The notes below the pieces were generated by a model. It ran no database searches. It had not been told where the DNA came from and saw only the letters and a list, made by a program, of their open reading frames with translations. A stretch of DNA of 64,000 nucleotides from Microcoleus sp. Aus8_D2 (lineage in GTDB: Bacteria; Cyanobacteriota; Cyanobacteriia; Cyanobacteriales; Microcoleaceae), in contig NZ_JAUBUN010000017.1 of the NCBI RefSeq assembly GCF_036702665.1, forward strand, positions 41,769-105,768. The letters are read 5' to 3'. Positions 35,501 to 60,494 of this stretch are shown one piece after another. Each line of letters opens with the position of its first letter. Within the stretch, counting starts at the first letter, position 1. A program made the position numbers and the translations under genes.

Positions 35501-35512
35501 TGACTGAATCTA

Positions 35513-35849: not shown

Positions 35850-36194
35850 TTATTCACCTATTATTTGAGATTTATTTTTGATTCGTTCCAGTACCTCCTC
35901 CAAAAAATCTTCGTTTTTGCCAGCAACCTCGATCATTTCTCGCAGCGTGTCAGCGTAGGACAAGGTACGCTGGTGGTGGTCTGGCATTTTTTCAAAACCC
36001 GGCCCCCACCGCTTGACGGCATCAATATTGACGCCTAAAACCTTTACCAGAAGCAGGTTGCAACGTGCTTTGTAGCCTCTGGCTTTCTCTTCTTCTTGTG
36101 TGGCGTGGAACCACCGACGGCAAAAATCCCAAGCTTCCATTGACTCACTCAGCCAGCTAAACCATTTGTCGCGTCGCGACGTTCTGCAACGCAA
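35850..36194 (-). CDS. Hypothetical protein (114 aa, or 96 aa from MEAWDF)
   Basis: ORF only. Acidic C-terminal helix. Confidence 0.35.
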   Translation of the reverse strand: MRCRTSRRDKWFSWLSESMEAWDFCRRWFHATQEEEKARGYKARCNLLLVKVLGVNIDAVKRWGPGFEKMPDHHQRTLSYADTLREMIEVAGKNEDFLEEVLERIKNKSQIIGE

Positions 36195-36306
36195 GCAACA
36201 TAGGGGAAAAATTACACTGTTTTAGGATTATGGTATCATCCGATTTGGTGTAATATTTCCCCTAATAGACTATAGCTGACAATTGGGACTCATCCACGAG
36301 TAGCCA

Positions 36307-36370
36307 GAAACCGGGTTTTTTACGAAAATACTTCGCTGCATCCCGCAGATTCGACAAAAAACCCGGTTTC
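36307..36370. repeat. MITE-like element, copy C
   Basis: agaaaccgggttttttacgaaaatacttcgctgcatcccgcagattcgacaaaaaacccggtttc. Confidence 0.65.
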
Positions 36371-36511
36371 TTTTGTCGCAGCGCATAAGTCCGGTTGATA
36401 AAATAAAGCTCAAAAAATAAATCATATTACCTCTCGACATTTTAGAATTAACGTGGCATCATCAAAGTAGTATAGCTGAGATAAACAACCTCATTCAAAA
36501 GCAAGGAGTGT

Positions 36512-36640
36512 TGGTTAAGTCGTCTCAGCGAGATGATGAGTTTATTTCGGCTGGCACAACATTTATTTAAATGTATATATCAACGGGTTTTTAGAACCCC
36601 TAGCCGAAATAAACTCATCATCTCGCTGAGACGCTAACCA
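36512..36640. repeat. Long inverted repeat: ~38-bp arms (ggttaagtcgtctcagcgagatgatgagtttatttcggct / agccgaaataaactcatcatctcgctgagacgctaacc) around a 45-bp AT-rich spacer
   Basis: Arms match as reverse complements with two differences (one base-substitution mismatch plus a 2-nt indel). Intergenic, 150 bp upstream of the NYN gene. Confidence 0.8.
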
Positions 36641-36787
36641 AACAAGGACAAACTAAATTCATCGTTTGTCGTTAGAGGAATCTGTTAAATGGGAAATCTC
36701 ATTTTTGAGCAAGCCCAAAAACAATACTTTGTGCTAGATGGGTAATTTATTGATGCTGTCTGTTCACCCTTTTTTCGGAACGATCCA

Positions 36788-37288
36788 ATGACAGACAATC
36801 ATCGAACCACAGGCAAACAAAAAAGTCAGTCTCAGCCTTTAGTTTCTATTTATTGGGATTATCAGAACATCCCTGATTACAAACGAGCCAAAGATTTATT
36901 ACTCTTTGCTAGTGAACTAGGATATGTAGTCAATCAAAAAGTTTACGACAATTGGAAACAGAGAAATAAGACCACACAAGAAACTTTGAATTATCTAAAT
37001 TTTGAATGTTTTGATGTATCCCTAAACATTAAAAATGCTGTAGACTTTTATTTGTCAATGAACTGCTGTAGCGAGGCTTCAAGGAGTTCATACCCACACA
37101 CATTTATTATTGTGTCTGGAGACGGCTACGGTGAAATTTTGATTCACGAGCTGCAAGACAAGGGGAAGGAGGTAATAATTGTTGCCCGCAAAGGTAATGA
37201 TAGTCACAATCTCAAAAAGCTTGCCGATCGATTTTACTTGATCGATGAATTGCCGAAGTCGATACAGACTTGCAAACAGACCGCCTAA
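36788..37288 (+). CDS. NYN-domain (LabA-like, PIN-fold) putative ribonuclease
   Basis: VSIYWDYQNI (first Asp), TFIIVSGDGYGEIL (DGD motif) and IIVARKGNDSHNL are the characteristic NYN acidic residues. Confidence 0.7.
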   Translation: MTDNHRTTGKQKSQSQPLVSIYWDYQNIPDYKRAKDLLLFASELGYVVNQKVYDNWKQRNKTTQETLNYLNFECFDVSLNIKNAVDFYLSMNCCSEASRSSYPHTFIIVSGDGYGEILIHELQDKGKEVIIVARKGNDSHNLKKLADRFYLIDELPKSIQTCKQTA

Positions 37289-37470
37289 ATTTGTGTAGAT
37301 TTACCTCGCCGCAGATAGCAAAAATCCAGTTTATTTGATAAACTAGATTCTCCAAACCAACCGCTGTCTGCGGCCCTTTCATGTCCGTCAACATCATTAC
37401 ACTAAACTCCAAAAGCAGTAACAATTACCAAGTTTTCATGCAATTAACTAATCCAACAAAAGAGATACAA

Positions 37471-38154
37471 ATGACCCTTCCCGAATTCAACAATGACAAA
37501 CTGCTGCGCCAAGCGCTCACCCACCGTTCGTACGTCAATGAAAACCCCACATTGCGCGAAGAAGACAACGAACGCTTAGAATTTCTCGGCGATGCTTTGC
37601 TGACTTTTCTCAGCGGTGAATATCTCTACCAGCGCCATCCTGAAATGGGAGAAGACCAACTTACTCGGCGGCGTTCTGCATTGGTAGATGAAAAACAATT
37701 AGCCAGATTTGCTACTGAAATAGATTTGGACTTAAAAATGCGACTCGGAAAAGGAGCTTATCGAGAAGGTGGGATTACCAATCCAAATTTGCTCAGTAGC
37801 ACTTTTGAAGCGTTCATTGGTGCTTACTATCTCGATACGCAAGATATGGACAAAGTTCGCGGTTTTGTGTGGAAACTGTTTGACTCGGTTCCCGAAAATG
37901 TTGTGGAAACTCGATCGACTGTAGACTCGAAAAACCGCTTTCAGGAATGGGTACAGACCAACGGCGAAACGACTCCGCCCAAATACGGGACTGTTCAGGT
38001 ACAAGGAACGCCGCCCCACGCACCGGAATTTCTCGCTAAAGTGTATGTTGCAGAGAAACTCTATGGAGAAGGTAAAGGCAAAAGCAAAAAAGATGCGGAA
38101 AAAAATGCAGCCGAAGATGCACTAGCTAGGCTCAAAAAACGCGGTCTGATCTAA
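37471..38154 (+). CDS. rnc: Ribonuclease III (RIIID + dsRBD). Alternative starts at 37381 or 37438.
   Basis: RNase III signature ERLEFLGDALL, catalytic STFEAFIGAYYLD, C-terminal dsRBD (KNRFQEWVQ...GEGKGKSKKDAEKNAAEDALARL). Confidence 0.85.
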   Translation: MTLPEFNNDKLLRQALTHRSYVNENPTLREEDNERLEFLGDALLTFLSGEYLYQRHPEMGEDQLTRRRSALVDEKQLARFATEIDLDLKMRLGKGAYREGGITNPNLLSSTFEAFIGAYYLDTQDMDKVRGFVWKLFDSVPENVVETRSTVDSKNRFQEWVQTNGETTPPKYGTVQVQGTPPHAPEFLAKVYVAEKLYGEGKGKSKKDAEKNAAEDALARLKKRGLI

Positions 38155-38278
38155 ACTGGAAAATAGGGCAACTGCCAAAACGGTTAGGACGTTCTTAATT
38201 GCACAAACATAACCTGAAGATTCCTTTTTCCTTTACAATTCAAAATCTAAAATCCAAAATCCAAAATCCAAAATCGAT

Positions 38279-39676
38279 ATGACTGACCAGCCGCGCACTC
38301 GCCAGGAATTGTACGATCGCATCCGTTCTAGCAGCAAACAAGAATTCATTCTCGAAGAAATGATCCGCCTCGGTTTCTGGCCCGCACAAGGCGAAATTCC
38401 CCAAGATCCGGCCGACGAAATTCGCCGCATCGGGGAAATTCAGCGAGAACTAGGCGAACTGCGCAGGGAAAGTTCGCGGCTGCAAAACGAGAAAGCACTC
38501 CGCAAGGAAATGCTGCAACAGCGGCTTGCCGAATCCCGGCGCAAACGGCAGGAAACTAAGGAACGCCGGGAAAGAGAACGGCAAGAACGCGCTGAGAATT
38601 GGCGGCAAAAAAAACAGCAAGAAATTAGCTATCTCGGTGACGGTGTATCTGCGGGACTCGATCGCACAAACGGCAATGTAGAACGCTTGCAAAGCTATCA
38701 GTTACCGCTTGGCAATACAGCAGCAGAAATAGCAGCGGCGATGGACATCAGCATCGGACAATTGCGGTTTCTCGCTTTTTCCCGCAAAACTTCCCATATT
38801 TCCCACTACATCCGGTTTAAAATACCCAAGAAAACTGGCGGAGAAAGACTCATTTCCGCACCGATGCCCCGCCTCAAAAAAGCACAGCACTGGATACTTG
38901 CCAACATTCTCGAAAAACTCGAATTGCACGGCGCGGCACAGGGTTTTCGATCGCATCATTCAATTGTCACCAACGCTCAACCTCATGTAGGTTCGGAAGT
39001 TATTATCAACTTCGACCTAAAAGACTTTTTTCCCTCAATTTCGTACAGGCGAGTTAAGGGGCTTTTTCAATCTTTTGGATATTCCGAAGCTGGCGCCACA
39101 ATCTTCGGATTGTTGTGTACGGAACCGGAGGTTGAAGAATTGGAATTAGACGGCAAAACTTACTTTGTCGCAGTTACAGAACGCCATTTGCCCCAAGGTT
39201 CTCCCGCAAGTCCAGCGATTACTAATTTGCTGTGCCGCCGCCTCGACAAGCGCTTAACTCAAATGGCTCAGGAATTGGGATTTGTTTACACCCGCTACGC
39301 TGACGATTTGACATTTTCGGCATCGGGAGACAGCTTGCAAAACATTTGTAACGTACTCAGGCGCACGGAGGCGATCGTTATTCATGAAGGATTTAGCATT
39401 AACGAACAAAAGACTCGGATATTGCGAAAAAATCGGCAACAAGAAGTTACGGGAATAGTGGTCAACGAGCAACTGAGTATTTCCAAGAAAGTGTTAAAAC
39501 GCTTCCGCGCAGCTTTATTTCAAATCCAGAAAGACGGGCCTGAGGGGAAGCGGTGGGGGAATTCGACTGATGTTTTAGCATCGATTCAAGGTTTTGCTAA
39601 CTTTGTAGCAATGGTAAATCCCGAGAAAGGTGCAGAATTTATCGAACAGGTGAAAGCCATTAAAAATAAATGGTAA
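38279..39676 (+). CDS. ret: Retron-type reverse transcriptase with ~150-aa N-terminal coiled-coil extension (465 aa)
   Basis: Alignable to retron-Ec86 RT: KIPKKTGGERLISAP (motif 1/2), HHSIVTNAQPHVGSEVIINFDLKDFFPSI (NAxxH + motif A), LPQGSPASPAITNL (B'), YTRYADDLTFS (C) and QQEVTGIVVN (retron VTG motif). The core equals residues ~140-465. Five copies of the octamer AAAATC(C/T) sit directly upstream of the ATG. Confidence 0.85.
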   Translation: MTDQPRTRQELYDRIRSSSKQEFILEEMIRLGFWPAQGEIPQDPADEIRRIGEIQRELGELRRESSRLQNEKALRKEMLQQRLAESRRKRQETKERRERERQERAENWRQKKQQEISYLGDGVSAGLDRTNGNVERLQSYQLPLGNTAAEIAAAMDISIGQLRFLAFSRKTSHISHYIRFKIPKKTGGERLISAPMPRLKKAQHWILANILEKLELHGAAQGFRSHHSIVTNAQPHVGSEVIINFDLKDFFPSISYRRVKGLFQSFGYSEAGATIFGLLCTEPEVEELELDGKTYFVAVTERHLPQGSPASPAITNLLCRRLDKRLTQMAQELGFVYTRYADDLTFSASGDSLQNICNVLRRTEAIVIHEGFSINEQKTRILRKNRQQEVTGIVVNEQLSISKKVLKRFRAALFQIQKDGPEGKRWGNSTDVLASIQGFANFVAMVNPEKGAEFIEQVKAIKNKW

Positions 39677-41721: not shown

Positions 41722-41812
41722 GAATGGGGAATTGGGCATGGGGCATGGGGCATGGGGCATGGGGAATTGGGCATGGGGGATGGGGCATTGGGCATTGGGA
41801 ATGGGGAATCAA
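41722..41812. repeat. STRR octamer array (GGGCATGG / GGGAATTG variants x ~11)
   Basis: ggggaattgggcatggggcatggggcatggggcatggggaattgggcatgggggatggggcattgggcattgggaatggggaatc. Confidence 0.9.
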
Positions 41813-43681: not shown

Positions 43682-46318
43682 TTAATTCCCCGGCAATTGC
43701 TGATTCTGGGCCACAGAACCAATCAAACCCAGAGCCGTGCTAAATAAATTAATCGGATTTTTGCCATCAGTAATTAACACACTTTGAAGTCCCAACGACT
43801 GCAAAAGTTTAGCCTGCATTTCCGGCCCCGCTTGTGCCATTGCTTTCAAAGTTTCCGGCCCGATCGCCTCTACTTTTTGACTAAATTCCGCACTGGTAAT
43901 TTCCGCCATCCGCTGCGCTTTCTCAATTTCCAAATTATTCAACATTTGTTGGTGCGCTAATTCTGCCTCCTGTTTGGCTATCATTTGCGCCAATTCTCCC
44001 TCAGCGCGAATTCTGGTCGCCTCCGCTTCTTGCTGTGCCAAATTCACTGCTAATTCACCTTGAATTATAGCAGATTCTGCCTTCGCTCTCGCTTCTGCTG
44101 TAGCGTGTCCAGTAGATTCGATTGCCGCATTTTCTGCCTGCAATTCTAACAGTTTTTTGCGTTCGGATTCTGCCGCACTTCTATCTACAATTGCTTGGCG
44201 TTCCAGTCTAGCTTTTGCCTCTTGTTCGATTCTGGCTGCATCGTGTCGCGCGGCAGCTTCTTGAGCATCGGTGGTAATTTGAATGGCAATTTGCACCGAC
44301 TTTTGCAAACTTTTTAAAGTTGCTTCATCGATGGGTTCCACTGACTGAATGTCAATGTTAGTGATGACTAAACCATTGGTTTTAAACCGGAATTCATCGC
44401 CGATGCGACCTTCCTCACCTATCCCAAATACAGCCTGACGGATAATTCGCGCCGAATTTCGGTGAAACTCGTCAAATTTTTCGCCCGCGACTGAACCCCG
44501 CACCCGAGATGCGATCGCCTTACAAGCATCTCCTACAAAATCCGGCACTTGAAACAGTTTCGCCGCCGCTTGTTCGTCGTGGCGATCGACATCAAAATAC
44601 CAGTTATAAGATAGCTTAATTTGCAATCGAGCGTGGTCAGAGGTTTCCACTGTAAAAACATCAGTCATAAAATCCGGCCCTAACAATAATGCCAAAGATT
44701 TAATTGTATTCGGCCGTTTTGGTTTCCCTGCTGATAAACGGAGAACTGTAAATGCTTCGTCGGGGCCAAGCATCACTAAATCCGGCCCGAATATAGTGCG
44801 TGCAGTTCGATTTTTGTAGTCATGAATTTGCACTACTGAATTTTGAGGAACGTGATAGACAACTGCTTTGGTTCGATCCCGAACTAGAACGGTTCCTGGT
44901 GTTTCTTCAGAACGTACCAAACCGCGATCGAACATCCGATCGCTCTTTTGCGCTAACAATTCTTCAACAACTGCGGGTAATTCTTTTTCCCAAAGTTGTT
45001 CGTAGGGAGTCAACATATATGCCTGCGGCCCGCCAACTAATTTGAGTTCTCCTGTTTGGATGTCCCGCACGTAAATGCCTTCATTCTTATCCAAAGGAAT
45101 AGCTTTGCGCTTTTCCACGACTTCTACTTCAACGCGGGGAATGTAATCTCGCGGCCCGGAAATCATCCACAAATCACCCGGCTGGTGAGAGATTAAATTG
45201 TCGCTTTCACCTTCATCAAAAGCTTCTCTTGCTCTCAATAACAGCGCTTCTTGTTCGCTGAGAACGTAGACTTTTTGAATGCCTCCTTCTAAAGATTCAC
45301 CTGGGTGCAGGAAAAAAGAAGCTCTTCCCTGACGGACTTCTTTCATTCCCAACTGCGGTTTGTGTTCTGCATCGATCGGATCGAGGACAATGCACCATTC
45401 GCGATCGCTCAAAGTTGTAATCTCTACTTCTCCTACAACTTCTTCATACACGTCGGGAATGTGAATTTCTGCATCTTCGATCGTCACCAACCATTCATCG
45501 CCCGCTTTTCTTTGCCGTCCGAAGATATCAGAAAAAGTCCGTTTCGCCTTCAAATGCAGAGCTTTCCGTTCCGTTAAAACGCAACCATTAATTACGCCGA
45601 CAACCTCTTCATCTACTCCAGGTAAATAAGCGCCTTCTTCTCTCACCAACCATTCCTCACCAGCGCGGCGGCGATTTCCTTGTCTGTCAGTACAAGATTG
45701 TCGCGTTATCAATCGCAAGGCTTGATTGGCTTTGATTACTTGAGATCTAACTATTTCTACAACTTCAACCTCCACACGGGGGAGATAAGTTCCCGGCCCT
45801 TCAAACAGCCATTCATCGCCAGCTAAACGGTTAATTGTTTGAGTCTGGGATTGTGCTTGTTCGCCCCTCGCCACAGGGGAACTATCCGCAAAATCTCGCA
45901 GTGCTTTGAGACGCAGTGCTTGATTAGTTTCCACTACTTGCAAGCGGGTAACATCTCCTGCCAATTCTTCCCCAGGATATAGCGGAAAAGGTTCTTGAGC
46001 GAAGCGAATTTCTGCGTCGCCGTACCGCAGTTTAATTTGTCCGTGAGGGTCAGCAATTGGTTGATTTTCTTGATTTCGCAGCACGGGATTGACAACAATG
46101 CAATAGTGGCGCGGCGGCACAACAATCATCGGTTCGGGCTTTAAAATTAAGCGTTCGTGGTCGCGCAATGTAATTGTTTGCGGCCCAACTTCCTGTTTGG
46201 TAACGCCAGTATTGTTGTCGAGAACATGAATGAATTGCTGGGGCTTTAGGCGAATTACGCCGCCAGAAATTCCGAGCGTGTCAGCTTTACTTTCACGTTT
46301 GAGTTCGCTTGTATTCAT
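43682..46318 (-). CDS. Major vault protein (MVP) homolog, 878 aa
   Basis: About nine tandem ~53-aa vault repeats (recurring ...GPxTYxPxxxEEVVxxxxAxxLxxxxALxLxAxxxF... e.g. [43 protein letters not shown]). SPFH/band-7-like shoulder region follows, then an Ala/Glu-rich cap-helix coiled coil ([24 protein letters not shown]...). Length matches eukaryotic MVP. Confidence 0.75.
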
Positions 46319-46714: not shown

Positions 46715-47554
46715 CTATTCCTCATCAGGCTCACCCTCAAAAGTTTCTTCAAATCCAGCTAAAAAGTCATCCAAAGCAACGGAGGCGATCGCCAAATTAA
46801 TACTATCAGCATCTTCCAACCCCCACGTATTCACCCCAACAACTTGACCGGCCATATTAATCAACGGGCCGCCCGAATTTCCCGGATTAATCGCCGCATC
46901 AGTTTGCAACACCTTCACCTCAGCAATATCATCATCATCTTCGTCGCCTTCCTCATACTCATCGGGTTCGCGAATTTCACTAATAATACCCTGAGTTACC
47001 GTTGCCGCCAACTGGCCCAAAGGATTTCCCACAGCAATTACTCGATCGCCAACTTTCACATCAAAAGACAACTCTAGGGGAGGATATTCTTCGGGAGATT
47101 CTACTTGTTCTCCTGTTTTCGGATCGATGATAAAACCAGTAATCAAAAGCAATGCTAAATCCTCTTCCGCATTACCAGTAAATACCACCTCTGCCATTCT
47201 CAACTTTCCGTCGTGAGTTTCGACTAAAACCTGTTCGACTTCATCTTCCTCGTAGAAGTAATCTTCATCGGCAATATCTTCGACAACGTGATAGTTAGTG
47301 ACAATTATGTCGGGGGATACAAAAAAGCCGCTTCCGGAGGAAATCTCTTCTCCTGTATCCCAATCCATCACGTAAACTGAAACTACCGAGGGCAAGACTT
47401 GCTCGACTACATCGGAAAAGTTTCCCGTCTGGCTTTTAAACTCTTTCAATTGCTGCTGCAAAGCTTTTCGATCTGCCTGCATTTTGCGATAAAGTTGCTG
47501 AAATTTTGCCAATTCTAGCTTTAATTGAGTTTCCTGAGCGCTCATATTTTGCAT
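46715..47554 (-). CDS. Trypsin-like (S1/HtrA-type) serine peptidase domain protein with N-terminal coiled coil and acidic inserts, no PDZ
   Basis: Catalytic triad context: TNYHVV (His), DLALL (Asp), GNSGGPLIN (Ser). Same strand and immediately upstream of the MVP gene. Confidence 0.7.
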   Translation of the reverse strand: MQNMSAQETQLKLELAKFQQLYRKMQADRKALQQQLKEFKSQTGNFSDVVEQVLPSVVSVYVMDWDTGEEISSGSGFFVSPDIIVTNYHVVEDIADEDYFYEEDEVEQVLVETHDGKLRMAEVVFTGNAEEDLALLLITGFIIDPKTGEQVESPEEYPPLELSFDVKVGDRVIAVGNPLGQLAATVTQGIISEIREPDEYEEGDEDDDDIAEVKVLQTDAAINPGNSGGPLINMAGQVVGVNTWGLEDADSINLAIASVALDDFLAGFEETFEGEPDEE

Positions 47555-49484: not shown

Positions 49485-50519
49485 TTAACGTTGTCCTGCT
49501 TGAAGTGCAGAATTTACAATCGCAACAACATCTGACTGCCGTCCATTTTTGACACTTACTCGATACAGCACCCCCAGCCTTTGCCACTCCACAGAAGCAG
49601 TGCAGTAAGCACCGCAACTATTGAAATAAATTCCTCTGATTCCGCCTGCCAATTCAATGCTTCTATAAATATCTCTGGGCAATTGTGAAGGAGGCGAAAA
49701 CGGTTCATCTCTTTTCGCTTCGATGCTGCCAAAAGTACAGGCTCCTCCACGGCATCCTTTGCCTAAATACATTTCAACAATGTAGCCGTGGGAACCCGCT
49801 TGCACATCAAAATCTAGTTGCTGAGTGTCAGATAAAGGCAGTATATTGGGGAGGAAAATAGGGACTCGCGTTTTGCCTTTGATTTGCTGAAAGATGTTGT
49901 TCGCAGGAAAACGATTTTTAGCTTGATTTGCACCTGACTTATCGGGAATTGGGGGGAACTTTTGGACAAAATCTATCCACTGCAAAACTCTATTTTTACT
50001 AACGTTCAGAGTGGGAATATAATATTTTTCTACGGCAATAGAAGGGCGACCCTTGTTAAGGTCGAAGTTGCGGCGAATGACTGTATTTTCCGGTTTGCCT
50101 AATCCGTAAGTTGCGGCTGTGGAGCGGGCTCTCTGGCAGCTAATTTTGAAGCTTCCCATGTCAATGTTGCCATTTTCGGCTTGGTAAGACCAATTGTAAC
50201 CTTCAGAAGTCCGATCGCGATCGCACAAAAAACGCGAAATCTCAAACATCTTGGCAATATGAACGTCGTAGGGGCGCAGCTTGCGGCTGCTAACAGATTG
50301 TGCAGTATTGCGATCGGGCACAATAAATTGGATGGATTGCCAGCCATCTTTGGAGGTATAATTAAACCAGCGAATTTCGGTCACAGACACTTCTGGACGT
50401 GCTAGCGCGGAGTTGGGCGTCAAAAGTGCGATCGTCAAAGCAGTCCCCACACCAGCAAAAATCGCCCCAAATAGCCATCTTCCCCTCATCCTAATTTCCC
50501 TCTCAGTAGGTAAGCGCAA
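49485..50519 (-). CDS. Secreted/membrane-anchored protein of unknown function with a conserved 4-Cys C-terminal domain (paralog of 50691..51266)
   Basis: N-terminal signal/anchor WLFGAIFAGVGTALTIALL. C-terminal ~150 aa collinear with the neighbour: KGKTRVPIFLP...GACTFG...LAGGIRGIYFNSCGAYCTASVEW...KNGRQSDVVAIVNSALQAGQR. Confidence 0.5.
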   Translation of the reverse strand: MRLPTEREIRMRGRWLFGAIFAGVGTALTIALLTPNSALARPEVSVTEIRWFNYTSKDGWQSIQFIVPDRNTAQSVSSRKLRPYDVHIAKMFEISRFLCDRDRTSEGYNWSYQAENGNIDMGSFKISCQRARSTAATYGLGKPENTVIRRNFDLNKGRPSIAVEKYYIPTLNVSKNRVLQWIDFVQKFPPIPDKSGANQAKNRFPANNIFQQIKGKTRVPIFLPNILPLSDTQQLDFDVQAGSHGYIVEMYLGKGCRGGACTFGSIEAKRDEPFSPPSQLPRDIYRSIELAGGIRGIYFNSCGAYCTASVEWQRLGVLYRVSVKNGRQSDVVAIVNSALQAGQR

Positions 50520-50690: not shown

Positions 50691-51266
50691 TTAGCGTTTC
50701 CCAGCTTGAATAGCAGAATTTGCAATCTTAATTACATCTGCTTCCAGTCCGTTTTTAAGGGCTACAGTATACATAAAACCCTGAGTTTTCCACTCAAGAC
50801 TTGCCGTACAGTAAGCCCCGCAACCGTTGTGAAAATTTCCTTTCACTCCGCCCGCAAGTTGAACAGTTTTTAACGTCTTAGTTACCCCTTCCATTTTAGT
50901 AGAAAACTCACCACCTTTTTGACCTCTAATTTCCCCAAGAGTGCAAGCTCCCGTACCTTTGCAATCTGCTGTAAACTCCATAGAAACACTATAGCTGTCG
51001 GGTTTACTTTGGGTTTGATAGTAAAGTTTCTGCGAAACAGGAACCAAGCTGGGGATAAAAATTGGCACTTGTGTTTTACCTTTTAACTTTGGCAAAATTT
51101 CACTGACCGGCACAGCAGCATCAGCTTGAGCAACAGGCTTTGTTTCCGCCAGCATCTGCGGCAATGATCCCGCACCAAAAACTTGCGATACAGGTACCAA
51201 AGCAGTCAATACGCAGGCAGAAGTCGCCAAAAGTAATAATTTATTGTTCACTATTTTTGTCCTCAA
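50691..51266 (-). CDS. Secreted protein of unknown function, short paralog sharing the 4-Cys C-terminal domain
   Basis: Signal peptide LLLLATSACVLTALVPVSQVFGA. KGKTQVPIFIP...GACTLG...LAGGVKGNFHNGCGAYCTASLEW...KNGLEADVIKIANSAIQAGKR. Confidence 0.5.
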   Translation of the reverse strand: MRTKIVNNKLLLLATSACVLTALVPVSQVFGAGSLPQMLAETKPVAQADAAVPVSEILPKLKGKTQVPIFIPSLVPVSQKLYYQTQSKPDSYSVSMEFTADCKGTGACTLGEIRGQKGGEFSTKMEGVTKTLKTVQLAGGVKGNFHNGCGAYCTASLEWKTQGFMYTVALKNGLEADVIKIANSAIQAGKR

Positions 51267-51443
51267 TGTCGAAACAGTCTAGTTTTGCACTGAACCGTGT
51301 TCACTTAATTTACAACACAACTCCAAAATACAAAAGCCACAACAGGCATTCAGGAAAAAAGCCAGTTTAAATTTTATTTACAAATGCACGGAAATATGCA
51401 GTAAGAGATAAGATAGAGAAGGCGAGTAATTTAGGAGTCGAAC

Positions 51444-52529
51444 GTGGAACTGCAAGAGTATTTACGCCAGCACGGATTAGAAACTTTGTGCGAAACTTAT
51501 CATATCAAAGTTACCCGCCACCGCCAATATCCCGATTTAGTCTGTCTGAAATACTCGCAGATAGAATCCCCGCTGGGCGAAAAAATAGTCCAGCAGTGCC
51601 GGGGCATTATTTTAGATGAGTCTCAAGATTGGCAGATTGTTTCTTATCCCTACGACAAATTTTTTAACTACGGGGAAGGCCACGCCGCAGCAATTGATTG
51701 GAGTCGCGCCAAAGTTTACGAAAAACTAGACGGTTCTCTAACTGTACTGTATTTTTATAACGGAGAATGGAGAGTGCAATCTAGCGGCACTCCCGATGCA
51801 GCGGGTGAAGTTAACGGTTTTGGATTCAGCTTTGCCGAACTATTTTGGAAAGTCTGGCAAGAATTGGGATATCAATTACCGGAAGCCACCGACGAGTGTT
51901 TTATCTTTGAGTTGATGACGCCTTACAATAGAATAGTTGTGCAGCAAAAAAATAATCAAATTGTCCTGCACGGGGTTCGCAACACTCAAACACTTCTAGA
52001 AACTGACCCCAGTATCTGGGCAAATAAATATGGCTGGGAGTTGGTAGCATCCTATCCTTTAACTAGCTGGAAAGAAGTTATCGAAGCGGCTCAACATTTA
52101 GATCCGATGGATTCGGAAGGGTATATTATCTGCGATGCTAACTTCAACCGAGTTAAGGTTAAGTCTCCGCAATATGTGGCGATTTCCCACCTTCGCGAAG
52201 GGTTTTCGACGCGGCGGATGATCGAAATTGTTTTGACTAATGAAGGAGAAGAGTTTTTAGCTTATTTTCCCGAGTGGATTGACTTGTATCAAAAAGTTAA
52301 GAGTAAATATGAATTGTTAGTTCAAGAAATCGAGGAGGTTTACCGACAGCACGAACATATCGAAGTTCAGAAAGATTTTGCGTTAGCTGTCAAGCATTTG
52401 CCGTATTCTGGGATTTTGTTTTCTTTGCGGGCTCGCAGGGTTGCCGGAGTGAAAGAAGCTCTCCGCGATGTTACGATTCATAAGATAGAGGAGTTATTGG
52501 GTTTGGATTATATCAATTTAGGTTTGTAA
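51444..52529 (+). CDS. ATP-dependent RNA ligase, T4 Rnl1-like
   Basis: Nucleotidyltransferase motif I YEKLDGSL (KxDG lysine). N-terminal region QCRGIILDE...YPYDKFFNYGE parallels T4 RnlA ECRGIMFE...RPMEKFFNLNE...LTKEDGSL. Confidence 0.8.
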   Translation: MELQEYLRQHGLETLCETYHIKVTRHRQYPDLVCLKYSQIESPLGEKIVQQCRGIILDESQDWQIVSYPYDKFFNYGEGHAAAIDWSRAKVYEKLDGSLTVLYFYNGEWRVQSSGTPDAAGEVNGFGFSFAELFWKVWQELGYQLPEATDECFIFELMTPYNRIVVQQKNNQIVLHGVRNTQTLLETDPSIWANKYGWELVASYPLTSWKEVIEAAQHLDPMDSEGYIICDANFNRVKVKSPQYVAISHLREGFSTRRMIEIVLTNEGEEFLAYFPEWIDLYQKVKSKYELLVQEIEEVYRQHEHIEVQKDFALAVKHLPYSGILFSLRARRVAGVKEALRDVTIHKIEELLGLDYINLGL

Positions 52530-52669
52530 ATACACTAATCGATGGTTTGCAGTCATATAAAGTAGAACTCCAAGCGAACTATTGTTTAAGGTGCGTCGCT
52601 ATGAGATTGTCGAGCTTGATTTAGAGCTTTTCGGCGGCGACGCACCCTACGGTGAAATACTATTCCCAA

Positions 52670-52730
52670 TGCCCAATGCCCTGCGCAAGCCAATGCCCTG
52701 CGCAAGCCAATGCCCAATGCCCAATTACCA
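52670..52730. repeat. Short tandem repeats (ccaatgccctgcgcaag x 2, caatgccca x 2)
   Basis: Read directly. Sits between the ligase and kinase genes. Confidence 0.8.
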
Positions 52731-52737
52731 ATTTACC

Positions 52738-53586
52738 ATGAAAAGAGTTATTGTACTTGTCGGCTTACCTGCTTCTGGAAAATCTCAATTTGCGAGAGAA
52801 TTGCTGCTGTCTGAACCTGCACGGTGGGTGCGTAGCAATAAAGATTTACTTCGAGAAATGGCTCACGCTTCTCATTGGTCTCCGGCGAATGAAAAGTTTA
52901 TTGTGCAGTTGAGAGATACGATTATTCTGATGGCTTTGGAAAGTGGCAAGCACGTGATTGTTGATGATACTAATTTCGGGCCTCACATCGAGCATATCAA
53001 GGAGTTGGTTAAGGGTAAAGCCATCGTGGAAGTTAATGATTCTTTCCTGCAAGTTCCGGTGGAGGAGTGTATTAAACGGGATTTGAAAAGACTTAATTCG
53101 GTGGGTAAAGATGTGATAATGAAAATGTACAATAAGTACGTGCGGGTTCCGGTTGCGCCGCCGGAATACAACCCGGATTTGCCGGATGCAATTCTTGTGG
53201 ATATGGACGGTACATTAGCGCTTCTCAATGGTAGAAATCCTTTTGATGCTTCAAAGTGCGATCGCGATTTACCGAATCAGCCCGTCTTAGATACCGTCCG
53301 CAAGTGGCAGTCTAGCGTTAATATTATCGTAGTATCGGGTAGAACCGATGACTGTCAACCTCAGACTGAACAATGGTTGCGGCAATACGAGGTCAATTAT
53401 GCAGGCCTCTATATGCGGAAAACTGGGGATATGAGGAAGGATGCGATTATGAAGGAGGAAATCTATCAGCAGCATATTGCAGGACAATATAATGTTAAGT
53501 TTGTATTGGACGATCGCCAGCAAGTTGTTGATATGTGGAGGTCGTTGGGATTGACTGTATTTCAAGTTGATGAAGGGGATTTTTAA
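52738..53586 (+). CDS. pnkp: Polynucleotide 5'-kinase / 3'-phosphatase, T4 Pnkp-like (N-terminal P-loop kinase, C-terminal HAD/DxDGT phosphatase)
   Basis: VLVGLPASGKSQFA (P-loop), ILVDMDGTLA (DxDGT), VVSGR, and C-terminus DMRKDAIMKEEIYQQHIAGQYNVKFVLDDRQQVVDMWRSLGLTVFQVDEGDF nearly superimposable on T4 Pnkp ...[52 protein letters not shown]. Start at ATG 52738. Confidence 0.85.
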   Translation: MKRVIVLVGLPASGKSQFARELLLSEPARWVRSNKDLLREMAHASHWSPANEKFIVQLRDTIILMALESGKHVIVDDTNFGPHIEHIKELVKGKAIVEVNDSFLQVPVEECIKRDLKRLNSVGKDVIMKMYNKYVRVPVAPPEYNPDLPDAILVDMDGTLALLNGRNPFDASKCDRDLPNQPVLDTVRKWQSSVNIIVVSGRTDDCQPQTEQWLRQYEVNYAGLYMRKTGDMRKDAIMKEEIYQQHIAGQYNVKFVLDDRQQVVDMWRSLGLTVFQVDEGDF

Positions 53587-53590
53587 AATT

Positions 53591-53986
53591 ATGAAAACTG
53601 AATTTTTTGCCCCTTGCGTTGAGGCTATTGAAGCCAATTTGTATGTGGGTTTTTCTGAAGCTAAGGGGGGCGAACATTATTTCATCCTGACACGACAAGA
53701 AGAATCTGAAGAAGAGACTGTTCCTAACAGAAAAAACATCTATGCAGAATTCGACGATGAATACTGGACAGAAGATGTAGGCATCGATTGGGTTACTCTT
53801 AGTCGCGAGGGATTTACTGTTCGCTTTGGTTCCGATACTATAACTCTTCTAGAATGCGATGAGGTTGCAATTACTTTCTCTTTAGAAGATGCTGACTTTG
53901 AAAGGTTAAGGTACGTATTACAGAAGATAATGCGGGGGTATGAAAATAGATTGAATTTAATCGATCGGTCAAGTGAGTGCGGGTGA
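53591..53986 (+). CDS. Acidic hypothetical protein (131 aa), possible immunity-like protein
   Basis: Start 5 nt after pnkp stop. Highly acidic (EESEEETV, DDEYWTED). Resemblance to polymorphic-toxin immunity proteins is impressionistic only. Confidence 0.35.
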   Translation: MKTEFFAPCVEAIEANLYVGFSEAKGGEHYFILTRQEESEEETVPNRKNIYAEFDDEYWTEDVGIDWVTLSREGFTVRFGSDTITLLECDEVAITFSLEDADFERLRYVLQKIMRGYENRLNLIDRSSECG

Positions 53987-54037
53987 GGCTACAGCAATAT
54001 CTAATGCTATAATCAAAGTAACATTAACAAAAATTTT

Positions 54038-54631
54038 GTGATGATAGCTATTCCCCAAGCACCCCAAAAAATGACCGTTGAGGAATATCTCGAATGGGAA
54101 GCTCAACAAGAGATTCGCCACGAATATGTCAACGGCGAAGTTTTTGCCATGACGGGAAGTACAATTCCCCATAACGATCTTGCACTTAACTTTTATACTG
54201 CATTACGCCCGCATCTGCGTTCCAGAGGTTGTCGGATGAACGTGTCAGATGTGAAATTGCAAGTCAGTTTTCAAAGCCGTTACTACTATCCTGATGTCAT
54301 AGTCAGTTGCGATTCTCAAGACTTGAATTCCCGCAAGTTTATTCAGAATCCTAAAATCATTGTGGAAGTTCTCTCCCCCAGTACAAGTGCTAAAGATCGG
54401 GATGAAAAATTCACTTGTTACCTGAAAATTCCGAGCTTGCAAGAGTATATCTTGATTGACTCAGAAAAAATCTCCGCTGAACGTTACTGTCGCGGAGAGG
54501 GCAGAATGTGGCTTTACTATGCTTACACTGCTGGGGAGATTATTACTTTATCAAGTATTGGGTTTGATTTGCCGATCGAACTTTTGTATGAAGGCGTTCA
54601 ATTTGAAACAGAAACAGAAACAGAAACGTAA
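54038..54631 (+). CDS. Uma2-family (DUF820) putative endonuclease
   Basis: MTVEEYLEWEAQQEIRHEYVNGEVFAMTG...PDVIVSC...IIVEVLSPST is the classic Uma2 PD-(D/E)xK pattern. C-terminus ETETET comes from a gaaaca hexamer repeat. Confidence 0.7.
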   Translation: MMIAIPQAPQKMTVEEYLEWEAQQEIRHEYVNGEVFAMTGSTIPHNDLALNFYTALRPHLRSRGCRMNVSDVKLQVSFQSRYYYPDVIVSCDSQDLNSRKFIQNPKIIVEVLSPSTSAKDRDEKFTCYLKIPSLQEYILIDSEKISAERYCRGEGRMWLYYAYTAGEIITLSSIGFDLPIELLYEGVQFETETETET

Positions 54632-54657
54632 ATGGGAATGTCGAAAACCGCAATCCG

Positions 54658-54850
54658 CGTAGGGGCGGGTTCGCCAACCCTCTATGGCGAAAATGAATCA
54701 TCTCGTAAACCCGCCCCCACCCGATCGCAAATACAAATCTACCCTTAATTTATTGGATAAAATGTTGATGTAAAATTGGGCGGGGGCAGGGCGGGTTTAT
54801 CAGATTGTTGGATTTGCGTTCGAGATTTCGGTGAACCCGCCCCTACGGTT
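54658..54850. repeat. Two mini-hairpin repeats (GGGGCGGGTT/AACCCGCCCC family) in inverted orientation flanking ~60 bp
   Basis: gcgtaggggcgggttcgcc...aaacccgcccccac, then gggggcagggcgggtttat...ggtgaacccgcccctacgg. Confidence 0.7.
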
Positions 54851-54885
54851 CAATTGTACCTGGTGTTGGTTGAATACATTTCAAT

Positions 54886-56427
54886 CTATCGCGTCCAAGC
54901 CAGCCAGCGATTGAATAAATTCTTGACAAACGGTGTCAAACGAGTGCGATTGTAGGCATCCCCAGCTTTGCGAATCGCGTCTGCTTGCGTCGGATATGGG
55001 TGAATTACACTCGCAATTTTCCCCAAACCAATATTGTTAACCATTGCCATAGTAATCTCACCGATCATATCGCCAGCGTGTCGTGCTACAATAGTTGCAC
55101 CTAATATTTTGTCGCTGCCTTTCTTGACGTAGATTTTCACAAATCCTTCTTCTTCGCCGTCTATAATTGCTCTATCGACTGTATCGAAAGGAATCAAAAA
55201 CGTATCGAAATCAATCCCCGCGGCTTGCAATTCGCGATCGCCCATGCCGACACGCGCTACCTCTGGGCTAGTATAAGTACACCAAGGTATCGTCAAAGCG
55301 CTGAGCTTTTTGCGCCCTAAAAACAGCGTATTTTGGATGACCATTCTGGCGGCAAAATCAGCAGCATGGGTAAATTTATCCTTCATGCAAATGTCACCGG
55401 CGGCGTAAATGCGGGGATTAGTTGTTTGCAAGTTGTCGTTGACAACTACGCCGGTTCCTGTATCGTATTCAACGCCCACAGCCTCCAGATTCAATCCTTC
55501 CACATTGGGCGATCGTCCCGCACTCGCAATAATCTCATCTACTGTTACCGATGCTTCCTTACCCTGGCATTGATAATAAATGACTTTGCCTGCATTTGTT
55601 TGCTCAACGCGCTCTATTTTGGATTCTAGAATTACCTGAATTCCTTCTGTCACAAAAGCCTGCTGCACGATGTTAGCAGCATCGACATCTTCCTTGTCCA
55701 AAATCTGAGCATTTTTGTGCAGCAGCACGACTTCCGAACCCAGCCTGCGGAAGGCTTGAGCTAATTCGCAGCCGATCGGCCCACCGCCAATTACCGCCAA
55801 ACGCTGAGGTTTTTCTGTGAGGTTAAATACAGTTTCATTTGTCAAATATCCAGCTTCCTGCAAACCAGGAATTTGCGGTTCTAGCGCCCTTGCGCCTGTG
55901 GTAATTACTGCTTTTTTGAATTTAAGAGTTTGACCTGCAACTTCTATGGTAGAATTGCTAGTAAAGCGACCGGAACCTAGGAAAACATCGACTCCTAATT
56001 TGTGCTGGTAGCGATCGGCAGAATCAACATCGCTGATTCGGGCCCTAATCCGGCGCAGCCTTTCCATGACAGCAGCAAAATCCACTTCTGCACTGTTAGA
56101 AACATTAATCCCAAATTTACTCGCATTCCAGATCTCGCCGACAGCCCGAGCCGATCGAATTAAAGCCTTTGACGGGACACAACCGACATTCAAACAGTCG
56201 CCACCCATCAAATGTTTTTCAATTAAAGCAACTTTTGCACCCAAACCTGCGGCGCCCGCAGCTACAATTAATCCGGCGGGGCCCGCGCCAATTACTACTA
56301 AGTTGTAGCTGCTAGCGGGCTGCGGGTTTACCCAATCTGGCGGATGCAAGTAGGAGACTAATTTTTGGTTGTATTCGTCCATCGGGGGGACTGTTACGCG
56401 ATCGACTTTTGACTGCGACATGAGCAA
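54886..56427 (-). CDS. Class I pyridine nucleotide-disulfide oxidoreductase (dihydrolipoyl dehydrogenase / mercuric reductase-like)
   Basis: FAD motif VVIGAGPAGL, redox-active disulfide GGDCLNVGCVPSK, NAD motif, C-terminal dimerisation domain. 513 aa. Confidence 0.7.
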   Translation of the reverse strand: MLMSQSKVDRVTVPPMDEYNQKLVSYLHPPDWVNPQPASSYNLVVIGAGPAGLIVAAGAAGLGAKVALIEKHLMGGDCLNVGCVPSKALIRSARAVGEIWNASKFGINVSNSAEVDFAAVMERLRRIRARISDVDSADRYQHKLGVDVFLGSGRFTSNSTIEVAGQTLKFKKAVITTGARALEPQIPGLQEAGYLTNETVFNLTEKPQRLAVIGGGPIGCELAQAFRRLGSEVVLLHKNAQILDKEDVDAANIVQQAFVTEGIQVILESKIERVEQTNAGKVIYYQCQGKEASVTVDEIIASAGRSPNVEGLNLEAVGVEYDTGTGVVVNDNLQTTNPRIYAAGDICMKDKFTHAADFAARMVIQNTLFLGRKKLSALTIPWCTYTSPEVARVGMGDRELQAAGIDFDTFLIPFDTVDRAIIDGEEEGFVKIYVKKGSDKILGATIVARHAGDMIGEITMAMVNNIGLGKIASVIHPYPTQADAIRKAGDAYNRTRLTPFVKNLFNRWLAWTR

Positions 56428-57366: not shown

Positions 57367-58398
57367 ATGACCACAAAAGCACAACTCCCAATTCCAGAAT
57401 ATTTCGACGCCCATAAAATCAGTGAAATCTGGCGAGTTCCCTATCAAGAAAGAGCGACTGAAGCTAATAATTGGGCCTGGAAACATAGTATTCAGCCAGC
57501 AGCTAGCGACGAAAAGCGAATTTGTTTGCTAATAATTGATGCCCAAAATACATTTTGCGTACCGGAATTTGAACTATTTGTCGGCGGGCGTTCCGGTAGC
57601 GGTGCTGTTGATGACAACTTGCGGCTGTGCGAATTCATCTATCGCAACTTAAACGCAATTACCACGATTGCGCCGACGATGGATACGCACACCGCTATGC
57701 AAATTTTCCATCCCATATTTTGGATCGATGATGCAGGCGAAAACCCCATTCCCGCCGCCACATTAATTACTCTAGAAGATGTGCAGCAAGGAATTTGGAA
57801 AGTCAACCCAGCCGTCGCCGATAGCATCGCGGGCGGGAATTATGCGGAACTACAAAAACACTGCCTTCACTACGTGCAGAAACTCAGCGACAATGGCAAA
57901 TTTCCCTTGACAATTTGGCCCTATCACTCGATGTTGGGCGGCATCGGACACGCCCTGGTTTCCGCCGTGGAAGAAGCGATATTTTTTCACAGTATGGCGC
58001 GCAACAGTCAAGCACTTTTTGAGATTAAAGGTGGGAATCCCTTAACTGAAAACTATTCGGTTTTGCAGCCGGAAGTGTTAGATGGGGCCGACGGAAATCC
58101 GATTGCTCATAAAAATGCTGCGTTTATTGATAAGTTGTTAGAGTTTGATGCGGTAATTATTGCGGGACAAGCGAAGAGTCACTGTGTTGCTTGGACGATT
58201 GATGATTTGTTGACTGAAATTGTGGCGCGGGATTCTATGTTGGCTAGGAAGGTTTATTTGTTGGAAGATTGTACTTCGCCGGTGGTTGTTCCTGGTGTTG
58301 TTGATTTTACTGAACAAGCAGATGCGGCTTTTTTAAGATTCGCGCAGGCGGGGATGAATGTGGTTAAATCTACTGAGTTTCAGGTACAATCAAGATAA
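57367..58398 (+). CDS. Isochorismatase-family cysteine hydrolase (343 aa)
   Basis: ICLLIIDAQNTFC (Asp of triad), catalytic Cys context GQAKSHCVAWTIDDLL. Confidence 0.6.
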   Translation: MTTKAQLPIPEYFDAHKISEIWRVPYQERATEANNWAWKHSIQPAASDEKRICLLIIDAQNTFCVPEFELFVGGRSGSGAVDDNLRLCEFIYRNLNAITTIAPTMDTHTAMQIFHPIFWIDDAGENPIPAATLITLEDVQQGIWKVNPAVADSIAGGNYAELQKHCLHYVQKLSDNGKFPLTIWPYHSMLGGIGHALVSAVEEAIFFHSMARNSQALFEIKGGNPLTENYSVLQPEVLDGADGNPIAHKNAAFIDKLLEFDAVIIAGQAKSHCVAWTIDDLLTEIVARDSMLARKVYLLEDCTSPVVVPGVVDFTEQADAAFLRFAQAGMNVVKSTEFQVQSR

Positions 58399-58420
58399 CT
58401 TAGCAACAGGGAATAAAATT

Positions 58421-58912
58421 ATGAATCCAAGTAGTCTAGATCCTATGTCTGGGCAGTTAACCCTACGTCTTCGCCACCAGCTTCCTGACCATCCAGGTAT
58501 TTATTTCGTGGTCGGTGAACGCGAACAATTATTTTATATTGGTCAAGCCAAGAACTTACGCAAACGTTGGGCAGGAGCGAGCCATCACCGCTACAAGCAA
58601 CTTGCTAGAAAAGGATTGGATAAAATTGTTATTAAATATATTCTAGCTTCCGTTTCTGAATTGAACGAGTTAGAGTGTCAATATATCGAAGAACTTAATC
58701 CCTTACTGAACTATGGGAGAGTCAAAAAATATTTGCCCAAAACCATTACCCGGTTTTCTGAGTTGCAGCGATTGCTTAAGCTTCCCAGCCAGCCTCTTTT
58801 TCCTTCAATAAAATACAAATCGCTTAATGGTCAAACGATTCCCAGAGAACCCTACGATTTATTTCGGGGTTTTGTTGCTGGTGTATATGAAAACCAGCAG
58901 TTACATATTTGA
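58421..58912 (+). CDS. GIY-YIG nuclease family protein
   Basis: HPGIYFVVGEREQLFYIGQAKNLRKR is the GIY...YIG...R motif. RBS agggaataaaatt before ATG 58421. Confidence 0.6.
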   Translation: MNPSSLDPMSGQLTLRLRHQLPDHPGIYFVVGEREQLFYIGQAKNLRKRWAGASHHRYKQLARKGLDKIVIKYILASVSELNELECQYIEELNPLLNYGRVKKYLPKTITRFSELQRLLKLPSQPLFPSIKYKSLNGQTIPREPYDLFRGFVAGVYENQQLHI

Positions 58913-59468: not shown

Positions 59469-60494
59469 TTATTTCCCATCCAACCTCGGCACGCCTTCCA
59501 AGAAAGGGCCGCTCAACATTAACTCAGTCATCCTATCTAATTTGCCGCTGACTTTCATTTGTTTGTCTGTTTGAAAGCGCTCGATATCTGCTGGCAAATT
59601 ACCAGAGTTATATCCTAATTTAGTCAAATAATCAACAGCTTGCTTGTCACTTAATAAAATATCAGTCGCGCGAAAAATCGGCACGTATTCATTATTCAGC
59701 CAAAATCGAGCTAAAGTTGGCCTGTCGAAATAAAAAATCTTCCCCCGCGCCGGATCGCCAATCATAGCTACACTGTCATTTATCCCCAGCAAAGCCACCG
59801 CGTGCGGCCGTTTGATAGCCCCAGTAGCCAGCGAAATTGACAGCACTCCGGGGCGATTGATTTGCTGCATTTGTTCCCAACTCGGAGTTAGTTCAATTCC
59901 CTGCATTCCCAAAGCTCTTGCTGCTACAATTAACTGCGGCATCGAAGTTCCCAAACGACTTGTGCCGGCAAAACGCGCCACACTCGATTCCGTCGCATCC
60001 ATTCCCCAACGCTTCAAAACTGTTGCTAAAGCCGCCGGCGCGCAACTGCTGTCAGATGTTTGGCGAAACACGCCATTCGGTTGCAAATTATCGATTAAAT
60101 CAGCATAAATTGGTGCCATAAAATAGGATTCAGCGCTTGTAAATCCTCCCAAGCCCAACAAGCCAATTAAAATTACTGCTATTACTTGCGATCGCGCCGT
60201 CAACCAACTTACAGTAAACCCAATCCCGCAGACTCCCATCAGCATCACCCGCAGCAGAGTCCAAGTTACTCGCATCCCGTGGAATCGCCACTCGATCGGC
60301 AAAACAGGCATTTGAGGCAGATTTAACGCCAGCAGCAGCAAGCCAATATAAAAACCCAAAAACAGCAGGGCGATCGAATTTCGGCCCTTAAACAGATCCT
60401 TAGCCGTCACACCCGATCGCACTAACGCCCTTCCCAACCGCATTCCCCAGACAAACAGCGCCGAACCCAGCAGCAGCGTTACCACTATTTCCAT
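59469..60494 (-). CDS. Membrane protein with C39-like cysteine peptidase domain
   Basis: N-terminal ~130 aa with 3-4 TM helices. Then QTSDSSCAPAALATVLKRWG (Cys active-site context like C39 QxxxxxCGxAAL) and downstream HAVALLG (His). Confidence 0.5.
   Translation of the reverse strand: MEIVVTLLLGSALFVWGMRLGRALVRSGVTAKDLFKGRNSIALLFLGFYIGLLLLALNLPQMPVLPIEWRFHGMRVTWTLLRVMLMGVCGIGFTVSWLTARSQVIAVILIGLLGLGGFTSAESYFMAPIYADLIDNLQPNGVFRQTSDSSCAPAALATVLKRWGMDATESSVARFAGTSRLGTSMPQLIVAARALGMQGIELTPSWEQMQQINRPGVLSISLATGAIKRPHAVALLGINDSVAMIGDPARGKIFYFDRPTLARFWLNNEYVPIFRATDILLSDKQAVDYLTKLGYNSGNLPADIERFQTDKQMKVSGKLDRMTELMLSGPFLEGVPRLDGK

Follow-up and report, generated by a model that had tools for sequence, protein, structure and literature searches.

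Introduction

Bacteriophage T4 produces an RNA ligase, Rnl1, and a polynucleotide kinase-phosphatase, Pnkp, which repair tRNA-Lys to counter the host anticodon nuclease PrrC; this is textbook RNA repair, studied as a phage counter-defence. Rnl1 and Rnl2 ligases with kinase-HAD phosphatases have also been described as a recurrent repair module in phages, and RNA ligases have been noted in operons with other end-healing domains, both in phages and in cellular genomes. A pair of this kind is therefore not surprising to a specialist. In the literature, no paper was found on a cyanobacterial Rnl1/Pnkp pair. Here we describe such a pair on a contig of the cyanobacterium Microcoleus sp. Aus8_D2 (NZ_JAUBUN010000017.1), in a stretch of 64,000 nucleotides (nt) that is called the window below. 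The feature under study, positions 51444-54631, consists of four open reading frames (ORFs) on the + strand, which encode an RNA ligase, a Pnkp, a small acidic protein (ORF3) and a Uma2 protein. A chromosomal, selected version of the T4 pair raises the question of which RNA breaks a free-living photosynthetic bacterium must heal.

The conserved unit of this locus is likely to be a two-gene operon, ligase followed by pnkp, which would encode a complete RNA healing-and-sealing pathway of the T4 type and would be resident, vertically inherited and selected. Both proteins have the folds, the domain order and the catalytic residues of the T4 enzymes, and their genes form a conserved, selected pair, which is a real and probably functional member of the known healing-and-sealing type. 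The pair is found in a minority of cyanobacteria and consists of cellular genes, not prophage cargo. Further downstream, an ORF related to the Imm10 family and uma2 have no relation to the pair; they are accessory genes that came to lie in a variable spot, which is bounded by pnkp and a convergent oxidoreductase gene. The sequence matches are far beyond chance, as judged from the E-values and from purifying selection on all four genes. Coordinates are collected in Table 1.

The RNA ligase

The ligase gene starts with the GTG codon at 51444, in agreement with the homologs, which all begin with MELQ. The protein passes the Pfam family RNA_lig_T4_1 (PF09511) with 75.7 bits against a cut-off of 28.3, and PHROG 562, the T4 gp63 family, matches it nearly end to end (1.5e-44). 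In a PDB sequence search the significant matches were three T4 Rnl1 entries only, at about 1e-8, and BLASTP against T4 RnlA gave 25% identity across amino acids (aa) 51-287. Close homologs are named "T4 RnlA family RNA ligase" by NCBI. The nucleotidyltransferase core of the Rnl1 family is present as K94-L-D-G-S, F-E156-L, E225-G226-Y and K238-V-K240. In detail, K94, G97 and E156 align with T4 K99, G102 and E159, and E225, G226, K238 and K240 with T4 E227, G228, K240 and K242, and in the N-subdomain R53, K72 and F73/F74 correspond to T4 R54, K75 and F76/F77. These catalytic and N-subdomain residues are invariant or nearly so across 17 cyanobacterial homologs.

Because it is the appended C-terminal domain that defines a family of RNA ligases, the C-domain was tested separately. 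The AlphaFold2 (AF2) model of the ligase is confident (predicted local distance difference test, pLDDT, 87.7) and helical from about aa 242 to 352, that is, an all-helical C-terminal domain of the Rnl1 type is found. Furthermore, a C-domain profile to which viral intermediates had been added is collinear with the T4 C-domain over 95 columns; it scored 26.2, and the best of 30 shuffles reached 17.0. By homology, the ligase is placed in the Rnl1 family.

The kinase-phosphatase and the spacer before it

The mechanically called pnkp ORF begins with TTG at 52582 and would encode 334 aa. The ATG at 52738 is preferred because at 13 divergent cyanobacterial loci almost every homolog has 282 aa, the length that the original prediction, made from the letters of the DNA, had given. 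Pnkp matches Pfam HAD_PNKP at 4.8e-53 (179.6 bits, cut-off 27.6) and AAA_33 at 3.7e-12, PHROG 505 at 2.7e-85 and, over the full length, two PDB entries, Pnkp1 (4xrp, 3.1e-51) and T4 Pnk (1ltq, 1.4e-43). The global alignment with T4 Pnkp has 39.6% identity. The last 50 residues are the best-conserved stretch, as had been predicted; "nearly superimposable" on T4 was, however, an overstatement, since 27 of the 50 are identical.

All 12 mapped catalytic residues of T4 Pnkp are conserved. For the kinase, the essential T4 residues Lys15, Ser16, Asp35, Arg38, Asp85 and Arg126 correspond to K15, S16, D36, R39, D77 and R118; for the phosphatase, T4 Asp165, Asp167, Arg176, Arg213, Asp254 and Asp277/278 correspond to D155, D157, R166, R202, D235 and D258/D259. 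The protein is thus assigned, on sequence grounds, to the T4-type kinase-phosphatase family. The Pfam, PDB and PHROG matches of the two proteins bear out the predicted T4 Rnl1-like and T4 Pnkp-like enzymes, and homology searches put neither the ligase in a DNA-ligase family nor Pnkp in an unrelated HAD or NTPase family.

The spacer of 208 nt between the two genes holds an imperfect palindromic hairpin and a heptamer array, and it folds better than shuffled sequences (z -2.8). The corresponding spacers measure 83-389 nt in loci of the Microcoleus group and the junction only 5-7 nt in divergent genera (L073, L074, L076, L077), so the 208-nt spacer is a Microcoleus-specific expansion of a short cyanobacterial junction. 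The + strand of 51200-54900 showed no terminator-like site, and a promoter and terminator scan of the locus did no better than on shuffles. Heptamer tandem arrays (CCCAATG or CCCCATG) occur in several intergenic regions of the window (52590-52725, 41727-41805, 14472-14487), and they resemble the short tandem repeats of filamentous cyanobacteria.

Conservation and genomic setting

Relatives of the ligase were detected by pattern at 161 loci among 185,579 species genomes (one genome per species). Locus counts given below refer to the best 80 of these 161 relatives, nearly all of them cyanobacterial, in which the presence of pnkp near the ligase was scored by tblastn. In 75 of the 80, pnkp lies directly downstream of the ligase gene; the exceptions are contig ends and two loci, L072 and L079. 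In addition, the neighbours at 15 divergent loci were compared all against all: ligase and pnkp were the sole genes in common (13 of the 15), and the search for a third conserved partner gave only antisense shadow ORFs and lineage-limited synteny. In distant loci the genes just upstream encode, according to Pfam, a glycosyltransferase, methyltransferases beside a GDP-mannose dehydratase, MEKHLA, a HAD hydrolase and a helix-turn-helix protein, so the neighbours of the pair in distant genomes are functionally unrelated.

Both genes are under strong purifying selection, the ratio of nonsynonymous to synonymous substitution rates (dN/dS) being 0.06-0.10 in the ligase gene and 0.05-0.09 in pnkp. 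In the Microcoleaceae the pair has a fixed place: on one side lie hemC and the genes of two secreted paralogs, and on the other the genes for a pyridine-nucleotide-disulphide oxidoreductase and a VTT/DedA membrane protein. The placement between hemC and the oxidoreductase gene is stable in Microcoleus, Tychonema, Kamptonema and others. The guanine + cytosine (GC) content of the pair equals that of its flanks, and the identity of the ligase drops from 97% to 56% in rough agreement with host taxonomy. The value of 97%, to Microcoleus sp. genomes, assigns the window to this genus. A dedicated chromosomal pathway, as the original prediction had it, fits this stable synteny and the dN/dS values below 0.1.

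The two paralogs, of 344 aa (49485-50519, - strand) and 191 aa (50691-51266, - strand), are divergently transcribed relative to the ligase gene and have hydrophobic, signal peptide-like N-termini and a common Cys-containing C-terminal domain. They were considered as members of the system and rejected, since they are syntenic only within the Microcoleaceae, are absent in distant cyanobacteria and have no Pfam match. One contig (L068, JBLNEP010000118.1) bears the label "Actinomycetota bacterium MAG69", but its genes for the ligase (77% identity), Pnkp, HemC, the 191-aa protein and the oxidoreductase follow the order of the Microcoleaceae, and it is probably a mis-binned cyanobacterial contig.

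The proposed pathway and what speaks against it

From homology and the conserved catalytic residues, the two enzymes may be expected to work as follows. The kinase domain of Pnkp (K15, S16, D36, R39, D77, R118) would phosphorylate a 5'-OH end, and its DxDxT phosphatase, with D155 as the nucleophile and D157, R166, R202, D235 and D258/D259, would turn a 2',3'-cyclic phosphate or a 3'-phosphate into 2'-OH,3'-OH. The ligase would be adenylylated on K94, pass the AMP to the 5'-phosphate and join the 3'-OH to the 5'-phosphate. Its helical C-domain of the Rnl1 type probably directs it to breaks in stem-loops, for example tRNA anticodon loops. Candidate sources of such breaks are endogenous RNases of toxin-antitoxin or abortive-infection systems, ribotoxins that come from competitors or are triggered by phages, and stress.

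Several observations weigh against a complete pathway of the T4 type encoded by one operon. The cyanobacterial ligase is a distant relative of T4 Rnl1. It fails NCBIfam TIGR02308, the T4 RnlA equivalog (54.6 bits, cut-off 242.25), and a C-domain profile built from cyanobacteria only matched the T4 C-domain no better than shuffles. T4 Lys119, reported as essential in the published mutational analysis of T4, aligns with Ser114, and this serine is invariant in the cyanobacterial clade; the ligase of phage SYP has Arg at this position. Ser114 weakens the designation "equivalog of T4 RnlA" and leaves membership of the Rnl1 family intact. In Microcoleus the structured spacer parts the ligase gene from pnkp, and their co-transcription is an assumption. 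At the two exceptional loci named above, L072 and L079, no pnkp lies near the ligase gene. Finally, no PrrC-, RloC- or colicin-like nuclease was found among the larger ORFs of the window, and no ribotoxin was found as a conserved neighbour in the 15 divergent loci. The cognate ribotoxin that the original prediction had supposed is conjecture. In PADLOC, the ligase and Pnkp belong to no listed defence system.

Alternative explanations

The best surviving alternative, itself unlikely, is that the pair carries out programmed RNA processing, for example the regulatory re-ligation of stress-induced tRNA halves, or RNA circularisation. The pair is conserved in a housekeeping-like manner and has no fixed toxin neighbour, and enzymes of the Rnl1 type can circularise single-stranded RNA. 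However, the surroundings offer no RNA that could be a substrate, no tRNA gene and no Rfam family; scans for Rfam families and tRNAs across the whole window returned no RNA genes. The patchy distribution (161 loci in 185,579 species genomes) argues against a core processing role.

It is rather less probable that the enzymes act mainly on DNA or in DNA-RNA transactions, that is, on 3'-phosphate/5'-OH breaks after desiccation or oxidation or on ribonucleotide-patched nicks. T4 Pnkp acts on DNA as well as RNA ends, and Microcoleus is desiccation-tolerant.

A pair that is inert or selfish cargo of phage origin, left by a prophage or acquired horizontally in recent times and having no host function, is very improbable. 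The module is indeed typical of phages, since relatives are encoded in 1362 phage records and 238 IMG/VR loci with viral identities of up to 55%, and one NCBI record calls a cyanobacterial homolog a "phage protein". Nevertheless, no phage genes flank the pair, and the stable position between hemC and the oxidoreductase gene, the rough agreement of identity with host taxonomy, the strong purifying selection and the flank-like GC content all stand against it.

The two downstream genes

That all four genes form one co-functional cassette of repair enzymes, immunity protein and nuclease against a specific ribotoxin, as the original prediction had proposed, is the least probable reading and largely refuted by comparative genomics: the genes share a strand, gaps of 4 nt (from the pnkp stop codon to the ATG of ORF3) and 51 nt (from ORF3 to uma2), a region free of + strand terminator-like sites, a remote immunity-protein kinship of ORF3 and a match of Uma2 to a PADLOC defence candidate, but only ligase and pnkp are conserved together, while ORF3 and uma2 vary independently, do not accompany the pair beyond the Microcoleus group and, in the case of ORF3, point to a deaminase toxin and are less constrained.

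Of the 80 syntenic loci, 4 have a full-length ORF3 and two more have fragments of it, while uma2 follows pnkp in about 43 and is missing from the others. All four combinations of presence and absence occur, including ORF3 without uma2 at one locus (L058). In genomes without ORF3 the nucleotide homology ends exactly at the pnkp stop codon (53586), and it restarts at 54001 in those that have uma2 and at 54887 in those that lack both genes. From these clean boundaries and the L058 locus it follows that ORF3 and uma2 are two independent cassettes in a variable spot. Homologs of ORF3 in Kastovskya and one other genome lie far from any RNA ligase, and its dN/dS of 0.26-0.41 means a weaker constraint than that on ligase and pnkp.

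The ORF3 protein is strongly acidic, as predicted (isoelectric point 4.3, net charge about -16). Direct searches of Pfam, NCBIfam, PDB, PADLOC and PHROGs with it gave no match, Pfam Imm10 at E <= 0.01 included. A profile of 17 close homologs, however, finds 81 representatives in 1.8 billion proteins, and 55 of the 64 relatives that were scanned match Pfam Imm10, the best at 7e-22. One bridging protein (P0145) is matched by the ORF3 profile at 1.6e-25 and by Imm10 with 29.8 bits against a curated cut-off of 28.6. By transitive homology, then, ORF3 is probably a divergent immunity protein of the Imm10 family, which agrees with the immunity-like character first suggested for it. Its AF2 model is poor (pLDDT 51.8), and the family profile gave only insignificant matches in PDB, such as the DddB immunity protein at E 0.27, which are not relied on.

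Imm10 (PF15588) is a mostly-beta predicted immunity protein of polymorphic toxin systems, its partner toxin being a deaminase of the Pput_2613 type; its genes have been described in heterogeneous polyimmunity loci, and cyanobacteria are outside the originally listed range of the family. ORF3 is likewise small and predicted to be mostly beta, but it stands alone, with pnkp and uma2 as neighbours and no adjacent toxin, deaminase or polyimmunity locus. ORF3 is a strain-variable orphan, and the toxin that it suggests is a deaminase, not a ribonuclease. At two loci with ORF3 homologs (L084, 5815-6757; L082, 5461-7026) the homolog lies in a tight run of small ORFs of no assigned function, with a 60-aa ORF upstream (3-nt gap) and a 121-aa ORF downstream (10-nt gap). 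These small ORFs have no reliable Pfam match, there being one sub-threshold MatE, and such a run may represent a small cassette of the polyimmunity or toxin-immunity kind.

Uma2 matches Pfam PF05685 at 3.1e-37 (128.1 bits, cut-off 27) over profile positions 1-169 of 172, and its PADLOC match is to the defence candidate PDC-S03 (6e-29). At the 3' end of its gene there is a perfect (GAAACA)x3.8 repeat (54605-54627), which encodes an ETETETET tail.

Table 1. Positions of the features of the Microcoleus locus and of the retron-like genes in the same window
Feature	Position	Strand	Basis or remark
WGR_XIII	29416-32640	+	PADLOC, 1253 bits
SWIM_XIII	32855-34546	+	PADLOC, 2e-247
RT_XIII	38279-39676	+	PADLOC, 6.5e-199
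AGGAG motif resembling a ribosome-binding site	51433-51437	+	Read from sequence; 6 nt before the GTG of the ligase gene
ATP-dependent RNA ligase, Rnl1 type, 361 aa	51444-52529	+	GTG start; Pfam, PHROG and PDB matches
Ligase motif I, KLDGS	51723-51737	+	
Ligase motif III, FELM	51903-51917	+	
Ligase motif IV, EGYII	52116-52130	+	
Ligase motif V, KVKS	52149-52166	+	
Ligase helical C-terminal domain	about aa 242-352		AF2 model
Ligase-pnkp spacer, 208 nt	52530-52737	+	Imperfect palindromic hairpin and heptamer array
Imperfect palindromic hairpin, 57 nt	52590-52646		In the ligase-pnkp spacer
CCCAATG heptamer / 17-nt tandem array	52665-52725		In the ligase-pnkp spacer
Polynucleotide 5'-kinase / 2',3'-phosphatase (Pnkp), T4 type, 282 aa	52738-53586	+	ATG start; Pfam, PDB and PHROG matches
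Pnkp P-loop, GLPASGKS	52762-52785	+	
Pnkp DxDGT acyl-phosphatase motif (DMDGT)	53200-53214	+	
ORF3 cassette	about 53587-54000		Indel of about 0.4 kb
ORF3, acidic 131-aa orphan, probably divergent Imm10 family, accessory	53591-53986	+	ATG start; transitive homology
Uma2/DUF820 PD-(D/E)xK nuclease-like protein, 197 aa, accessory	54038-54631	+	Pfam PF05685

Other genes in the window

PADLOC reports a retron-like system of type XIII at 29416-39676 (+ strand). Its reverse transcriptase gene is directly preceded by genes for a NYN-domain RNase (36788-37288) and for an RNase III (37381-38154), and the interval 34547-36787, which has small ORFs only, could hold the noncoding RNA of the retron. A link of the ligase-pnkp pair to this system, 12-22 kb upstream, was considered and rejected, because housekeeping genes lie between them and there is no linkage. 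The window also encodes an 878-aa homolog of the Major Vault Protein (43682-46318, - strand; Pfam Vault repeats 7.7e-64, MVP_shoulder 2e-52, and Vault_2/3/4), next to a trypsin-like peptidase (46715-47554). Genes of a mobile or conflict type are those for TnpB / IS605 OrfB (18505-19755, - strand), an nSTAND1-like NTPase (7282-8343, - strand), a GIY-YIG nuclease-domain protein (58358-58912, + strand) and a Peptidase_C39-domain protein (59469-60494, - strand).

Annotation and wider meaning

In current records cyanobacterial Pnkp orthologs (P0242, P0263, P0265, P0277 and others) are labelled "AAA family ATPase", "predicted kinase" or "phosphatase domain-containing protein". Because the Pnkp partner has such generic labels, although the ligase is named properly in NCBI, the repair pathway is hidden from present annotation.

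A wider picture can be drawn, which taken as a whole is speculative and doubtful. The pair might be the ancient, vertically inherited counterpart, possibly even the source, of T4 tRNA repair, and in a subset of cyanobacteria it might serve as a general antidote to the cleavage of anticodon loops or other stem-loops by the cell's own abundant RNases of toxin-antitoxin or abortive-infection systems or by the toxins of competitors. The spot downstream of it in Microcoleus would then be a landing pad for conflict genes, such as the orphan Imm10 and Uma2 / PDC-S03, and the whole a small "damage-tolerance" islet, and the change of Lys119 to Ser might mark a mechanistically distinct subclade of Rnl1.

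Comparison with known systems

T4 itself, with rnlA (gp63) and pseT, has the same two types of enzyme and the same domain order in Pnkp, kinase and then DxDxT phosphatase. The mapped Pnkp catalytic residues, the ligase motifs I, III, IV and V and the N-subdomain residues are in common, and the Rnl1-type C-domain is in common at the level of fold. In T4 as here, the ligase gene lies upstream of the kinase-phosphatase gene on the same strand, but four genes separate rnlA and pseT, whereas the cyanobacterial pair is a cellular chromosomal operon whose genes abut in most cyanobacteria. A nuclease like PrrC, the opponent of the T4 enzymes, was not found near the cyanobacterial pair among the larger ORFs of the 64-kb window.

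Outside the cyanobacteria the closest relatives of the ligase are in phage modules outside the T4 group; the identity over the full length is about 33% for cultured phages, and viral contigs reach 55%. In Pseudomonas phage vB_PpS_SYP, too, pnkp directly follows the ligase gene, and the Pnkp of this phage is 36% identical. Of 80 loci in viral contigs, only 29 have a T4-type pnkp at a distance of up to 6 kb from the ligase gene, in variable order; compared with the 75 of 80 cyanobacterial loci, this means that tight coupling is more a cyanobacterial than a viral trait.

Two bacterial systems can also be compared. In the Pnkp1-Rnl-Hen1 system of Capnocytophaga, Pnkp1 is the closest solved relative of the Pnkp described here, and there is likewise a bacterial two-gene operon of pnkp1 and ligase. 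Pnkp1 forms homodimers and T4 Pnkp homotetramers. The ligase of the present pair, however, is not of the bacterial-Pnkp (Rnl4-like) type, and no methyltransferase that could be the Hen1 2'-O-methyltransferase partner was found among the window ORFs of at least 120 aa, hen1 being unlinked to the operon even in Capnocytophaga. The bacterial Pnkp-Hen1 system (Clostridium thermocellum, Anabaena variabilis) follows the same sequence of kinase, 2',3'-phosphatase and ligase and also occurs in cyanobacteria (AvaHen1). It differs from the present pair in that one trifunctional protein holds all three activities, the phosphatase being a metallophosphoesterase and the ligase an Rnl4. The present Pnkp scores 19.6 bits against NCBIfam bacter_Pnkp (cut-off 750), and the pair is judged not to be a bacterial Pnkp-Hen1 system. 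This kind of repair system is already known, and the cyanobacterial pair is an uncharacterised member of it.

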